DNA of 64,000 nucleotides from a plasmid. Where the stretch lies: the sequence record NZ_CP118918.1; one strand, written 5' to 3'. The position numbers are program-made. Positions 12,001 to 18,000 of this stretch are shown in pieces (the first letter of the stretch is position 1; every line of letters starts with the position of its first letter).

Positions 12001-15000
12001 TCGCCGCCACACTCCGTGTGACCCGGCGTCGCAACTGCCTTCTACGGTTTGACGGTCACATGTCCGATCCTCACTTGCATCCCGTCCTCTCTGCGCTACC
12101 TTGGCTTCGCCGGGACCCTTTAGACCTCGTAGAGATACCGTAAGAAAATGTATTGCAGGTCAATCGGATAAGCGGTTCAGGTGAGGTTTGGATTGGGCCG
12201 CAGAATCAGAATCGTTGAGGCAAGGAGCCCAGCCCCGGCAGCTAGCGCCCACGCTGGCTGCTGGTCGGCCTGCAGTAATAGCCCTGCCCACACCCCGAGC
12301 AAGCCGCCGGCGGCCGCGAAAGAGTGTCCCCAACCCATCACCTGGATGAACCGATCACCCCGAAAAAGCTCTTGACGCGCAGTGACCTGCGTGACTTCCA
12401 CTCCCGTCAACAAGGACGACGTGAGGGCGACATAGGCCCAGAACAGGACGACTACTACTGGCAGCCCAGCGATGCTGCCTGAACCGGGGTCGCTGCCCCA
12501 AGTGTACACCGCGGCGGATCCCATGAGGACCGCGGTGAGGACGCAGCCGGTGTACAGCACTACCGTGGCTCCGAACCGCCTGGTGGCAGCACGGGCCAGG
12601 AAGGGGCCGACCAATGCCCCGACACCCGCGCAGATCGCCGCGACGGCAAAGAAGCCGCCTTTGTTGTCGATAAACGAAGCGCACCACTGTCCGATATAGA
12701 GGGCGCTTAGACCCGCAGCAAGGGGAACTGAAGCCGAGAACAACGGTGAGCCTGGACCTTTCATTCCTAAGAGGGTCCTCAGCGTGATGTTGGTTTCCTC
12801 GTGGTCAGCGTGTTGGGCCGATTCGTTGTCGTTCGCCGCGGAACCGACTCCCACCGATCGTCCCAACCGGAGACTGCGGTAGCGTGCGGCGACGGCCAGC
12901 AGCGAGGCAACAACATTGACAGCCAGTACCGCCAACACTGACCACCCTGCGAGGAGGCTTCCCAACGGTGTGCTCACGAACTGTGACACCGCAGGCAGGG
13001 CGGCATACAAGTAGGTGTTGAACACGGCGGCAGAGCCAGGCGCCTTCCTCTCAATCTCGGCGCCATAGAACTCCTCGGCGAGGTCGATGAACAGCGGCAG
13101 AAAGGACGTCGCGGCGGTGTAGACGCAGAGGATCACAGCCGCCCACCGCTGATCCACCGCGATGATCGCCGCTCCTGCCAGCAGCGTCAGTGCGACATCA
13201 GCGACCTCGCACCGGACAAGAATCTTGCCCGCCTCGAACCTGCGCAGCATCCGGGCCGCAGCGGCGCTGCACATGTCCTGCACATTCTCCAGCGTTGCCA
13301 TCAAGGGCAGCCACAGCAGCGGCAGCAGACCTAGCGCCACCAGAACCGGTACGGCACCGCCGACCACGGTGGTCCCAAAGTAGGACCACAGCAGGCCGAC
13401 GAGCATCCAGGTTCGAGCTCGCTGAATGACACCCCTGAGTCGCAGCGCCGAAGCACTACCGGTGGTCACGCACCAACCTCCCCGGGGCGGGTCACTCCAG
13501 CGTTGGAGCTGAAAACTCTTGCAAAGGAGGAAGAGCGACGGCCGATCATGCCGCGCGTGTGAGCTGTTCTTGTCCTGCGGGGCTCAGATCGAACGGCTGC
13601 GCGCGGATGTCGTCGAGCCACCCGACAACCTGGTGCCGCTCGGAGCCAATGTCGGCGCACTTGGGATTGTTCCGAAGCTGGTTCGAAAGATAGGCGGCGC
13701 GGAAGCAAATCCGGCGCCACTGATCGAGGTCTTTATCTAGCCGCTCGGCCTCCCACACCGCGGCAGCGGAAACAGTGAGGTGCGCGTAGACGTAGAACGC
13801 ATCGAAGGTTCGCACTGTCGACCATTGGCTGACCGAGCCATCTTCCTCGCGTCGCCACGGCACCTGGATCGGCTTGTCATCCTCGTCTTGCTCGCCTGAG
13901 GTGGCCTCCTCGAGGAGCGTCTTCATTCCTCGCTCCAACCACACTGTCTTGGAATGCAGGGCTTCGTGGAACAGGGATTCCGCGAGGACTTTGGGCGTCT
14001 CGAAGGCCGCCGGCCCGAACAAGACGAGGCCGGGGTACTCCATCCAGGTCTCGCCGACCATGTTGGGGCGGTCGGTCAAAGCGAACATCTGCAGGTAGCT
14101 CAGTGCGTCGCGTGAGAGATCCGGGATGGTCGTCTCGAGGATCTCTATCGCGCGGTCGAGGGTTGCGCGTTGCTCACTGTTGAGCGTCAACACTCGTTTG
14201 GGGTCGATGCGATTGTTGATGACCCTCACCATGATGGACGCACCGTCGTGTAGCTCAACATCTGTTCCTTCGAGGCGGCGGTCCGCGATCTGCGTAGGTG
14301 GCCGGTACTCGTCGAGCTGCTCGCGGTCAACGTCGGGTACCGCATCGGCGTGCTCTTGACCGTGCGTGACCTCAGCGGCGTGTTGCAGCAGTGGATGGAT
14401 GTTGGCGTCCATGACTTTGTCCTCCGAAAGGCCGGCTTCGGTGAACCACGTCAGCGCCGCCGACCGCAGGTCGGAGGGCGCTCCCCAGCGCCCTGTGATG
14501 AGCGCTAATTCGCGGTCACGTGTGGTTTCCAGCATGGTGTTTCTCCTTTTGGTAGTGAACGGGTAGTGAACCGCTGCCCGACTGGCAGGCGGCGACGATT
14601 TCTGGTTTCCGCATTCGACCTATTGGTTCGACGGGTAGGCCGAGGCGCACGAGGTGGAACTTCTCCGCACCGATAACGACTATCTGCACAACTGTCGGCC
14701 CCACCTCAGAGCCGCCGGCTTGCGGTCTGCGGTGCAGTGTGCGCCGCAGCACGGGGTAACCCGCTGCGATCACCCTGCTTGCGGTCTCCCGGAAGTCTCC
14801 CGATGAGCTAGGTAGTTGTGACAGCTCTACTTTCGCTTGCGCTGCCGGTGGTACCTCCGACAGGAAATAGGCCCGCCGGAGGAATTCGTGATGGACGACC
14901 TCGGATGAGGTCTCCGGGTCGAGGTCGTCGTCGCTGGTGTCCAGTAGGCCGGCTTCGAATTCGTGCTCGACTGCGATTTCCTGTTCGTACTCCAGCAAAG

Positions 15001-18000
15001 CACGTTCAGCGGCGTAGGCGGGTATGCCCGAGCATCCGAGACCCACGACACGCCGCCTGTGGTAATCGTGCCGATTGCTGAAAGCGATGCAGACTGTTGC
15101 TGCCAACGAGGGCAGAACGCGCACCGTGACAGACGAGTCGCTGGCCCGTTCAATGCTGCGCTGCAGGCGTCCAAGATCGCTCTCAGCGAGGGCGAGCTCG
15201 GCGCCGACTCTTCTGTTGCAACACACGTCGAGCAGGAACCCGCTGAAGGCGTCTCGCTCAAGAACTTCGTTGAGGGCGTGCAGCGATGCATCCGCCACCG
15301 TCATGCCGGCGGCGTAGCCGTTGGAGCTCCAGTATCGTGCAGCCAGCGCCAGATGCGGATCGTCGCCAGCTTCGGGCACTTCGTCGTATACCGCGGCGGG
15401 CAGCCACACCACGCCCGCGCCTGCGGGCTTGCTGACCTGGTAGAAGGGCGTAGCGAGAGTGGTTCTAACTCCGCTGTTCCGGATGTTGCGGCCCAGGAAG
15501 TCTGGTTCGAGCGCCCCGCCCTTGTACAGCTGAGCGGTAGATATCTCGGCGTTGCTATCAATGCGTTCGACTACGCCCATCGAGACCGCGTGTTCGTACA
15601 GCTCAAAGAGGGCGCTTGCTTCGCACTGCCGCCCCAAACCCTTTCCGCGGCTGGCGACAATCACACCGTTCTTACCAATGAGGGACGCGGCCGATTGATG
15701 AGGAAATTCGCCTGAAGGGGTCCGGTAGTTCAGTTTGCCTGCGTCACGAAGGACACGCTGGACTTCATCGATGGCTGTCTTGACATCGACTGTGCGTTCC
15801 GATGAAGCCAGCGTGCCTCGCATGTCCGGGTCTCGCCTACGTCAGAGCTGCGTCGCCGACGAAGACCTCGCCGACGAATCCGCCAGCGGGGCAAAGAAGT
15901 CGGCTTCGTAGTCCTTGTCGCCGGGGGTGGCGACCGTGACGACGACGACCGGACGGACAACGCGCTCAGTTCGAGTAATTCCCATTGCTTTCTCCTAAGA
16001 AAGTGCTGTTGATAGTTCAGTGATTCCACGCGGCCACCTCCGAGGTGGCCCATGAGTATTGGGGCGGCACGCAGAAGCGCGTGGCGGTCGCTTTGAGCGC
16101 CACCGCCGCCGGGAATGCAGTTGTCCCCCGACAGCCAACTGATCGCACGAAAGTATTTGCGCCTCAACGAATTATGAGAAGTTGTGCAATAGAGCCCCCT
16201 CTGTGGGGTGCGGCATTCACCCCGTTTAGTGAGATGCCTGAAGCCGACCAATTCTTTAGGCCGACAGGCTTTTAATCACCGGGATTGATTCGCTACGACG
16301 CGCGAGGAGGCGTTACTGGCACCATGCGGTGAATCGGAAGATAGACCTGAAATCACCTTGGCCAGAACGAAACAACTGTCATGAGGCTTGCCACGAGACC
16401 CAAATTGACGTTGCTGCTCCCCTAGGCTTGAAGGGTACACAGGGTGCCTAAGCACCGCAACCAATCGAATCGAAGCAACGGTGGCCGAGAACTGAACATG
16501 TGGCGATGCGATGCTCAATCGGTGGGTTGGGCGCATTGACCCCGAGACCGGGGAGAGCGCAAACCCCGCTGAGTGTGTCCCTGACCGTCCTCGGGGGTTC
16601 CATTCGTTTAAACGTGCGTCTCGGATTTGCTGGCTAACGATGAGCAACGTCCATATGTCAAAGCAACTGTCTAACTATCTGAGACGACGCCCTGCGACTG
16701 CCTGGGGAGACCATGGACCTGCCTTTGCCGTTGCGAGCCAAGGGTTCTAACTGCGGGTACTGGGTCTGGCATATGCTCGGGATTACTGCTCGATACCGGG
16801 GCCCCGGTGGCTCCGGTCCCTTCCGGTGTTGTGGGGAAGTCCGGTGTTCTCCCGGTGGTGGGAACCGCTAACTAGGGGTGGTCCTCGTAGTGCAGCAGAA
16901 CGACGGCGGCAGGGGTTTCCACGACGTGGAACTGAGCGCTGGCGGCAGGTAGCTCCTGGGCGCAGCGCTCAGCTTCAATCCAGGTAGTCACGCAGGCGGG
17001 GCAGTCGTGGTGTGCAAGGTGGGCCAGGCTGACAAGCCATGGGGTGACAGGTGCGGGGTCGAGCATGGTGTCGAAGTGGACTGTGAGCAGCGGCAGCTGG
17101 CTGACGCTGTACGGGTGGCGGTAGAGCGCGGCGGTCCCGGTGGCCACCACAGGGTCAGCTTCGGTGTCGAAGCCAGGAATGTAGAGAGGCCTGCCGTCGG
17201 TGAGGTGGTCGAGCCGGGAGCGAGCATAGCGACCAAGCTCGGCGGCGATGACCAGCGGCGACACGGTGCGGATGCTCATAGCTCCATCCCGTTCTCGGAG
17301 CCGTGGTGGCGGCTGTGACGGGGGCGGTTGCGCTCCCACCAGGCTTGCTGTTCGGGGGTAAGGCCGTCCTTGACGGCAGCGGTGTGCTCGGCGGTGGCGT
17401 GCTCGGCCGTGGTGGTGTCCTGGGATGCTTGGCTGGGCAGGAGGGCGGTCAGGCGGGGGTCTTCGTGCCACCGGTCGCCGTAGACGGAGTGGCCGATCCA
17501 CAGCGCGATGGCGGGGGCGGCGGGCCCGGCGAGTTGTAGTGGCGGTGTGTGGTCGTCGGCGAAGGACATGGTGACTGCCCGTTGGTGGGGATCGGGATAG
17601 AACTCGGCCATTTCGCTGTACCAGAACGATGTCCACCCGCCTTGGGGGCGGCTGCACATCAGCCGCTGGTTGGTGGTCAGGACTGCGGCTTCGCGGTAGT
17701 TGGTCCATTGGGGTTGGCTGCTGCGGTCGGCCTCCCTCCGGCGGCGGTTGTTGACGACACCTTGGCCGGCCATGGCCGCAGCCATCAGAACCGGGTTGAC
17801 TATGAAGGGGGCTTGGGCGCGTTCGTAGTGCCCGTTGCCGGCGGCCAGGCGGCTGTAGGTTGCGGGGCTGCTCAGTCGCGCGACCTCGTTGGTGTTCAGG
17901 AATGGGCCGTGAACGGCCACGGTGGGGGGTTCTTTGCCTGAGCGTAGGGCGGTGGCGGTACCGACCGCGTAACTCCACCACGGATCGATTGAGGGCGATG

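Follow-up and report, generated by a model that had tools for sequence, protein, structure and literature searches.

A candidate ribosomal-peptide operon with a partner-less YcaO protein and an HExxH protein on a plasmid

The 64,000-nucleotide (nt) stretch of plasmid DNA analysed here (sequence record NZ_CP118918.1; hereafter the window, along the whole of which coordinates are counted) carries four consecutive co-directional open reading frames (ORFs) on its minus strand, at 12177-15985. They encode a small peptide, a YcaO protein, a protein with an HExxH motif, and a transporter of the major facilitator superfamily (MFS). It is quite probable that this operon makes a peptide that ribosomes produce and that is then modified post-translationally (RiPP), of an uncharacterised family, in which the YcaO enzyme would activate a backbone amide, the HExxH enzyme would carry out an oxidation, and the MFS protein would export the product. 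What was established directly comprises gene structure, protein families, co-conservation of the genes, a natural fusion of YcaO with HExxH, purifying selection acting on the peptide, and the lack of partner proteins. A preliminary description of the region, made from the sequence alone, had proposed a RiPP-type cluster, and the conserved precursor ORF, the YcaO without partner and the dedicated MFS gene bear this out.

Arrangement and conservation of the four genes

The ORF listing of the window gives the four minus-strand genes as previously described, together with a tentative control region (lengths in amino acids, aa):

15986-16260, minus strand: upstream non-coding region, tentative candidate promoter/operator (palindrome and -10-like box)
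15842-15985, minus strand: small precursor ORF, 47 aa (ORF list, ribosome-binding site, homologues upstream of YcaO)
14516-15823, minus strand: YcaO, minimal and stand-alone, 435 aa (PF02624)
13546-14535, minus strand: HExxH protein, 329 aa, with HEALH at residues 190-194 (TIGR04267, below cutoff)
12177-13469, minus strand: MFS transporter, presumed exporter, 430 aa (NF037960)

Because the small ORF lies 18 nt from the YcaO gene, the YcaO and HExxH genes overlap by 20 nt, and only 76 nt separate the HExxH and MFS genes, the four are read as one operon with translational coupling. The good ribosome-binding site and the length first reported for the small ORF were correct (AGGAGA, 8 nt before its ATG), but the gap to the YcaO gene had been given as 20 nt. 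Further upstream on the minus strand, the palindrome GGGGTGAATGCCGCACCCC (16223-16205, ~190-240 nt upstream of the precursor ATG) and a -10-like CATAAT (16176-16171) are common, by alignment, to the 61%-identity loci L007 and L023, and constitute a tentative candidate operator and promoter. Consensus scans for sigma-70 promoters and terminators found nothing above shuffle expectation, and no Rfam RNA family was found in 8000-18500. The 885-nt stretch 15986-16871 holds no convincing gene.

Relatives of the two enzymes are few: among 5.8 billion protein clusters searched, YcaO had only 12 and the HExxH protein 8. The order small ORF (43-47 aa), YcaO, HExxH (321-329 aa), MFS (429-450 aa) is kept in loci L006-L011 and L013-L015, at 44-61% YcaO identity and with differing flanking genes, while L032, at 34% HExxH identity, still has the YcaO-HExxH-MFS triad. 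The co-occurrence of triad and small ORF, proposed earlier as a check, is thus found, and the four-gene arrangement is beyond chance, since independent loci at 34-61% protein identity repeat the gene set. In P0002, present in independent assemblies, YcaO and HExxH are fused in one 755-aa polypeptide, a Rosetta-stone argument for joint action of the two proteins. A scan of genome contigs with the HExxH profile yielded a single true relative, from a metagenome-assembled genome of M. kyogaense, and two distant actinomycete homologues with exporters downstream. The metagenome scan contributed locus L023, a locus of a sister clade (L024, see below), and distant, unrelated YcaOs.

The presumed exporter, another element of the preliminary description that holds, matches NCBIfam NF037960 end to end at 427.8 bits (cutoff 150) and has about 11 hydrophobic segments. 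It matches no Pfam family at E <= 0.1 and has no sequence relative in the PDB at E <= 1. Its start is ambiguous, either the GTG at 13469 (430 aa) or M22, which some annotations use (409 aa). An MFS homologue lies 3' of the HExxH gene in seven loci and in L032.

The precursor peptide and its enzyme contexts

The 47-aa precursor, MGITRTERVVRPVVVVTVATPGDKDYEADFFAPLADSSARSSSATQL, has two conserved blocks, residues 1-13 and 26-37 (YEADFFAPLADSS), and a variable C-terminal tail rich in Ser and Thr. In every homologous locus, a homologue of 43-47 aa adjoins the YcaO gene on its upstream side, so that the lack of conservation named earlier as a possible refutation does not apply. An AGGAG-type ribosome-binding site precedes every copy compared. 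The consensus of the window-type peptides (clade A) runs MG[ITG]TRTERVVRPV, a variable segment, [YH]E[AK][DS]F[FL][AV]PL[AS][DEQ]S[SA], and the variable tail. Over the first 13 codons, comparison of the window with L007, L008 and L009 gives 5-10 synonymous versus 0-1 non-synonymous differences. The small ORF is a real gene under purifying selection at the amino-acid level. A regulatory leader peptide was considered for this ORF and rejected, because it is on the amino acids that selection works.

Relatives of the peptide also occur beside each enzyme alone. A YcaO-only sister clade comprises M. paraense L031 (LQPL01000014.1, 8001-9387), L012 and L024. Its peptides, of 42-45 aa and with the pattern MHRHKVGFYAADRE[DE]TDIxGRExAFLVP[LS]..C...AG, directly precede a 36-41%-identical YcaO; HExxH and MFS genes are missing from the immediate surroundings, and the chromosomal neighbours are succinate dehydrogenase and nucleotide-salvage genes. 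HExxH-only loci, with no YcaO nearby, are L017 (M. abscessus contig SRR14719188_63, 6774-8014) and L019 (6679-7963), the HExxH homologues of which are 37-38% identical to the window protein. Directly upstream of the HExxH gene, they carry small ORFs of 40-46 aa with the motif DLEVDFLVPIADSE, namely MARQGDYRTVQPTKASASGKDLEVDFLVPIADSELAQDVV in L017 and MARTGTYGTVQPARLDASDGDLEVEYLIPIETSELASAAHNLSAES in L019. The L017 pair lies within a nonribosomal peptide synthetase (NRPS) cluster with condensation, carrier-protein, penicillin-amidase, multi-module NRPS and SbmA/BacA-type ABC transporter genes, and may belong to a RiPP/NRPS hybrid or supply a shared scaffold peptide. Around L019, only a condensation-domain fragment and insertion sequence (IS) elements are found.

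These peptides are related by more than position. A hidden Markov model (HMM) built from the clade-A peptides only was run against 2467 six-frame fragments from 11 loci, and its top ranks were L017 (E 3e-6), L019 (0.14) and L031 (0.37), exactly the small ORFs beside single enzymes. All share the element E-x-x-[FY]-[FL]-[VAI]-P-[LI]. After it, every HExxH-associated peptide continues with x-x-Ser, and the peptides of the YcaO-only clade have a Cys two to four residues further on. Since such small ORFs stand at both YcaO-only and HExxH-only loci, each enzyme pairs independently with the peptide family, and the two come together in the window.

Sister-clade peptides are conserved over their N-terminal ~27 residues, and their 12-15 C-terminal residues, among them the Cys, vary. 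Because this C-terminus varies, as do the Ser/Thr-rich tails after PL-x-[DEQ]-S in window-type peptides, a leader-then-core layout is favoured, in which the core would begin around residue 34 and a Ser or Cys would act as the nucleophile in the YcaO reaction.

The reverse layout, by analogy with bottromycin, is improbable. The N-terminus GxTRTERVVRPV, with its Met removed, would then be the core and the rest a follower, and YcaO would form an amidine with the N-terminal amine. YcaO proteins of the bottromycin pathway work without a partner. The almost invariant residues 1-13 of clade A fit this layout, as does a partner-less YcaO of the kind in the streptamidine pathway (PMC8442711). However, the sister clade has a wholly different N-terminus, yet its YcaO is still 40% identical and the motif E-x-x-F-[FL]-V-P is kept. 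Only one YcaO occurs in the loci, and a Met-aminopeptidase, a hydrolase partner and a radical S-adenosylmethionine (SAM) gene are all missing. Furthermore, the precursor has no NCBIfam match at E <= 0.1, in a library that includes the bottromycin precursor family NF033414 (PMC8442711).

The single-enzyme loci also bear on whether a product leaves the cell. It is very improbable that none does, with the peptide serving as scaffold, carrier or regulator, or with YcaO modifying a cellular protein, and the operon serving plasmid or host physiology. Such a role would suit the M. paraense peptide, which lies with a lone YcaO beside housekeeping genes and has no adjacent exporter, and the peptide that stands with an HExxH protein within an NRPS cluster; no antibacterial activity is known, either. 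Against this, a dedicated MFS gene comes after the HExxH gene in each window-type locus whose contig reaches that far, and the peptide is always immediately upstream of an enzyme and under strong purifying selection. No YcaO role other than in RiPPs is known in Actinobacteria (PMC8442711).

The YcaO and HExxH proteins

The YcaO protein matches Pfam PF02624 at 94.6 bits (gathering threshold 25.7) over residues 60-385, and carries no extra domain. The SxGKG...ExxER signature reported earlier is essentially right: the motifs are SRGKG (58-62), E74/E77, and E186-V-L-E189-R190. Among 11-12 homologues, SRGKG, E74, E77, E186, E189, R190, E273, R274 and E278 do not vary, and the ATP/Mg2+ signature is thus intact. 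Also upheld is the lack of a TfuA, E1 or ThiF partner: none of these families is recorded for the called genes within +/-10 kb in the identical loci L001-L005, and no Pfam family of an E1-like/Ocin-ThiF partner with a RiPP recognition element (RRE) occurs in any gene of L001-L016.

The window YcaO stays below the cutoff of every curated NCBIfam YcaO subfamily. The archaeal McrA-type model TIGR03266 gives 36.5 bits versus a cutoff of 365. A housekeeping YcaO of the E. coli type (S12 methylthiotransferase accessory), which had been named beforehand as a finding that would overturn the proposal, was rejected, as NF040716 gives 11.9 bits versus a cutoff of 700. An exhaustive profile search of 1.84 billion representatives returned 526 proteins at E <= 1e-10, 70 of them at E <= 1e-30, mostly stand-alone YcaOs of 400-430 aa, and none of the ten that were scanned reaches any specific curated subfamily cutoff. 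Two of the proteins found, P0092 (841 aa) and P0110 (796 aa), are tandem double-YcaO fusions among the nearest outgroups, and of the ten scanned only these pass the generic YcaO-domain model TIGR00702. Among PDB sequences, the closest is 6ci7, the YcaO of M. kandleri (E 9e-5, a 120-residue local match), a TfuA-independent archaeal thioamide-forming enzyme. It has a similarly minimal size and no partner, but the substrate here would be a dedicated small peptide and not McrA. Azoline, thioamide or amidine formation, or cleavage, are alternatives for the YcaO chemistry that the protein's sequence leaves side by side.

The HExxH protein has no Pfam match. The curated model TIGR04267 ('aKG-HExxH-type peptide beta-hydroxylase', the same family as IPR026337) is matched by all eight HExxH homologues, with a best E of 3e-10. 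H190, E191, H194, K196, E201, R202, P226-W227, H252, R274, R275 and R279 are invariant in the family, and the family profile LAESLxHExLHxK...ER...PWR aligns with ChlH LADSLIHEHRHQK...PWR (in ChlH, LIHEHRHQK...PWR). An AlphaFold2 (AF2) model from an eight-sequence alignment reached a predicted local distance difference test (pLDDT) of 83.3 and a predicted template-modelling (pTM) score of 0.86, and it shows the distinct fold of the ChlH HExxH domain. In a Foldseek search of the PDB, it matched the HExxH domain of ChlBHExxH (8s5f, deposited as an oxygenase that depends on alpha-ketoglutarate (alpha-KG); E 1.6e-6, TM 0.53-0.59) and SjiH (22ob, E 2.5e-4); zinc peptidases, of the LTA4H aminopeptidase type, appeared only at E > 1.

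On sequence and model, the protein is a divergent relative of the alpha-KG-HExxH oxygenases, very probably with the same function, and probably not a gluzincin. It is called a divergent relative and not a scored member because it misses the curated TIGR04267 cutoff. The preliminary description was right about the motif, HEALH at 190-194, but an oxygenase-type reading, with a model resembling ChlBHExxH, is preferred to its gluzincin-like label. Characterised alpha-KG-HExxH enzymes use Fe(II) and alpha-KG, and in RiPP precursors they introduce a beta-hydroxyl group on His, Asp, Phe, Gln or Pro; two of them, PflC and PosC, also cleave the backbone oxidatively and have some hydrolytic activity (PMC12636437, PMC13060819).

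This last property allows another reading, which is unlikely. The HExxH protein would be a leader or follower peptidase, acting as a zinc hydrolase or else cleaving the backbone oxidatively with alpha-KG, so that a C-terminal amide is left, and YcaO would be the sole modifying enzyme. The motif is present and the cluster holds no other protease. In addition, PflC and PosC remove a C-terminal tetrapeptide oxidatively, PflC hydrolyses without its leader, and the alpha-KG-HExxH fold has been described as zincin-reminiscent (PMC12636437). The structural matches given above point to the oxygenase side.

Proposed pathway and plasmid setting

In the favoured pathway, one transcript would carry the genes for precursor (47 aa), YcaO, HExxH oxygenase and MFS exporter. 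YcaO, without E1/ThiF/RRE or TfuA, would use ATP to O-phosphorylate one backbone amide of the precursor. Most likely, the conserved Ser just after FFxPL (Ser36 or Ser37; Cys in the sister clade) would then attack to give an azoline; a thioamide, an amidine or ATP-dependent cleavage are also plausible outcomes, because this YcaO is without the cyclodehydratase hallmarks. The HExxH protein, as an Fe(II)/alpha-KG oxygenase, would hydroxylate a side chain in or beside the motif, with Asp35, Phe30/31 or Pro33 as candidates; less likely, it would cleave the backbone oxidatively. A neighbouring GNAT acyltransferase would acylate the peptide or protect the producer, and the MFS protein would export the product. 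Candidates for removal of the leader are a host protease, the HExxH enzyme (with PflC as precedent) and YcaO.

The two enzymes could also be coupled, although little credence is given to this version. The HExxH enzyme would beta-hydroxylate a non-Ser/Thr residue of FFxPL-x-D/E, and YcaO would cyclodehydrate the new hydroxyl onto the preceding amide, with the peptide family also serving as an NRPS scaffold in M. abscessus. If true, this would yield a substituted oxazoline unattainable from proteinogenic residues, would imply a RiPP/NRPS hybrid logic, and would explain the natural YcaO-HExxH fusion. The existence of the YcaO-only clade makes it less likely, since it means that YcaO generally needs no prior hydroxylation.

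Several observations weigh against the pathway as first set out. The azoline-type model TIGR03604 (SagD) gives only 37.4 bits versus a cutoff of 219.25, and by sequence the window YcaO is equally near the archaeal thioamide-forming YcaOs. A Pro-rich PxPxP C-terminus is a feature of azoline-forming cyclodehydratases; the YcaO C-termini are variable among the homologues and hold no conserved PxPxP. TfuA, ThiF/E1, PqqD-like RRE and FMN dehydrogenase families are recorded in none of the loci, and the AF2 model of YcaO is poor (pLDDT 58.7, C-terminal third below 50) and unfit for structure search. The HExxH protein scores 28.8 bits (E 1.1e-6) against the TIGR04267 cutoff of 40, so that, of the two profile checks suggested earlier, the YcaO one succeeded and the HExxH one fell short. 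No protease for leader removal is encoded in the cluster. The boundary between leader and core is ambiguous, and the near-invariant residues 2-13 in clade A could mean an N-terminal core. The chemistry is wholly inferred, and product and activity are predicted only; the chemical steps, the leader/core boundary, export and biological role should all be read as proposals.

Known systems resemble the operon in part. Alpha-KG-HExxH RiPP clusters (the triceptide enzymes ChlH/ChlBH, BpmH for biphenomycin-like products, PflC/PosC, and PesO for nitrilobacillins) share the fold and the HExxHxK...PWR signature. They likewise place the enzyme gene beside a short precursor and a transporter, and the pfl cluster also has a GNAT gene (PMC12636437). 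Nevertheless, the window protein is just 12-16% identical to the solved members, and it pairs with a YcaO (fused to it in one lineage), whereas those systems pair with a radical SAM or multinuclear non-heme iron-dependent oxidative (MNIO) enzyme. Bottromycin and streptamidine offer a minimal YcaO of ~400-435 aa without E1/ThiF/RRE/TfuA and a short, poorly annotated actinobacterial precursor. However, the window has no second YcaO, radical SAM methyltransferases, hydrolase or bottromycin-type core, and an HExxH oxygenase takes the place of the accessory genes of both systems. The amiB/amiC/dehydrogenase/FecBCDE set of streptamidine is missing from the loci, and the precursor is without motif A or B (PMC8442711).

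The cyclodehydratases (SagD/McbD/LynD) of thiazole/oxazole-modified microcins and linear azol(in)e-containing peptides (TOMM/LAP) share the YcaO domain with its ATP/Mg residues and a precursor C-terminus containing Ser/Thr or Cys. They differ in their C-protein/RRE, FMN dehydrogenase and PxPxP C-terminus, all missing here, as well as in the TIGR03604 score. The F-x-x-x-L spacing in FFxPL resembles the FxxxB leader motif of TOMM/LAP systems, a resemblance only. Neither a cluster that joins a YcaO to an alpha-KG-HExxH enzyme nor this precursor family was found described in a full-text literature search; the survey of actinobacterial standalone YcaOs that discovered streptamidine concerns a different family and gene set (PMC8442711). 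The operon is a case of two known RiPP enzyme classes in an uncharacterised combination, with an uncharacterised precursor family.

On the opposite strand, three genes lie beyond the MFS gene:

11091-12143, plus strand: GNAT acyltransferase, 350 aa, convergent with the MFS gene (PF00583, PF13508)
10266-11018, plus strand: SDR gene (family assignment)
8573-10150, plus strand: HTH gene (family assignment)

The stop codons of the GNAT and MFS genes are 33 nt apart. A GNAT homologue occurs in five of the seven loci compared, at varying positions (L007, L009, L010 and L013 carry homologues), and the weak nearest structural relatives of the protein are N-alpha-acetyltransferases. It is a probable accessory gene, for tailoring or self-protection. 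For the SDR, a single further locus holds a homologue, and for the HTH gene none of the seven does; in place of the HTH gene, a NovG-like regulator and an Rv3651-like protein occur in other loci. The earlier suggestion that the flanking plus-strand genes provide tailoring and regulation thus has support for the GNAT gene but is weak for the other two.

The rest of the window confirms the apparently mobile backbone noted at first sight, through recombinases, a TnpB, a transglycosylase and a full ESX gene set:

221-3717 and 37980-39224: two adjacent tyrosine recombinases (phage-integrase family) and an IS605-type TnpB (OrfB_IS605 and Cas12f1-like TNB)
40022-61354: ESX/type VII secretion locus
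41498-42688: SLT transglycosylase
43783-45321: EccB
46511-49522: FtsK/SpoIIIE EccC-like ATPase
50038-51249: PPE
54983-56524: EccD
57933-59573: EccE

By its gene content, the window fits a mycobacterial conjugative plasmid of the ESX type. Just upstream of two small hypothetical genes and the cluster lies a huge minus-strand ORF (18010-24336) of up to 2108 aa, called at 1793-1872 aa in the identical loci; it encodes a helicase C-terminal domain, and the records of those loci assign it to the families WH_1/DUF8437/Helicase_dom. A few kb off the cluster, at ~5060-6730 (L001 gene calls mapped back), toxin-antitoxin-like modules (a PhdYeFM antitoxin paired with a PIN protein, and another PIN protein with a small partner) are consistent with plasmid maintenance.

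The exact YcaO sequence occurs on contigs from many samples and in GCA_000974925.2. A Mycobacteroides chelonae plasmid (WED89816-19) encodes all four proteins in identical form or with at least 90% identity, and the same proteins are found in Mycolicibacterium obuense, M. iranicum, M. abscessus subsp. massiliense, Mycolicibacterium sp. TY66/TY81 and M. kansasii. Public annotations call them 'YcaO-like family protein', 'HEXXH motif domain-containing protein', 'hypothetical protein' and 'MFS transporter'. DNA and protein searches of the PLSDB plasmid collection gave no match.

To our knowledge, few modified ribosomal peptides have come from mycobacteria. The cluster joins two enzyme classes whose outcomes are not predictable from sequence, the partner-less YcaO and the alpha-KG-HExxH oxygenase, and the natural fusion and two single-enzyme sister contexts make a ready-made comparative system. 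As the whole pathway comprises four genes in ~3.8 kb, heterologous expression offers a direct test of it. Given its location on a conjugative ESX-type plasmid, the cluster would most plausibly supply a competition or addiction factor. Because the proteins of the cluster's plasmid are near-identical across several mycobacterial species, a secreted product could affect competition among environmental and clinical non-tuberculous mycobacteria.

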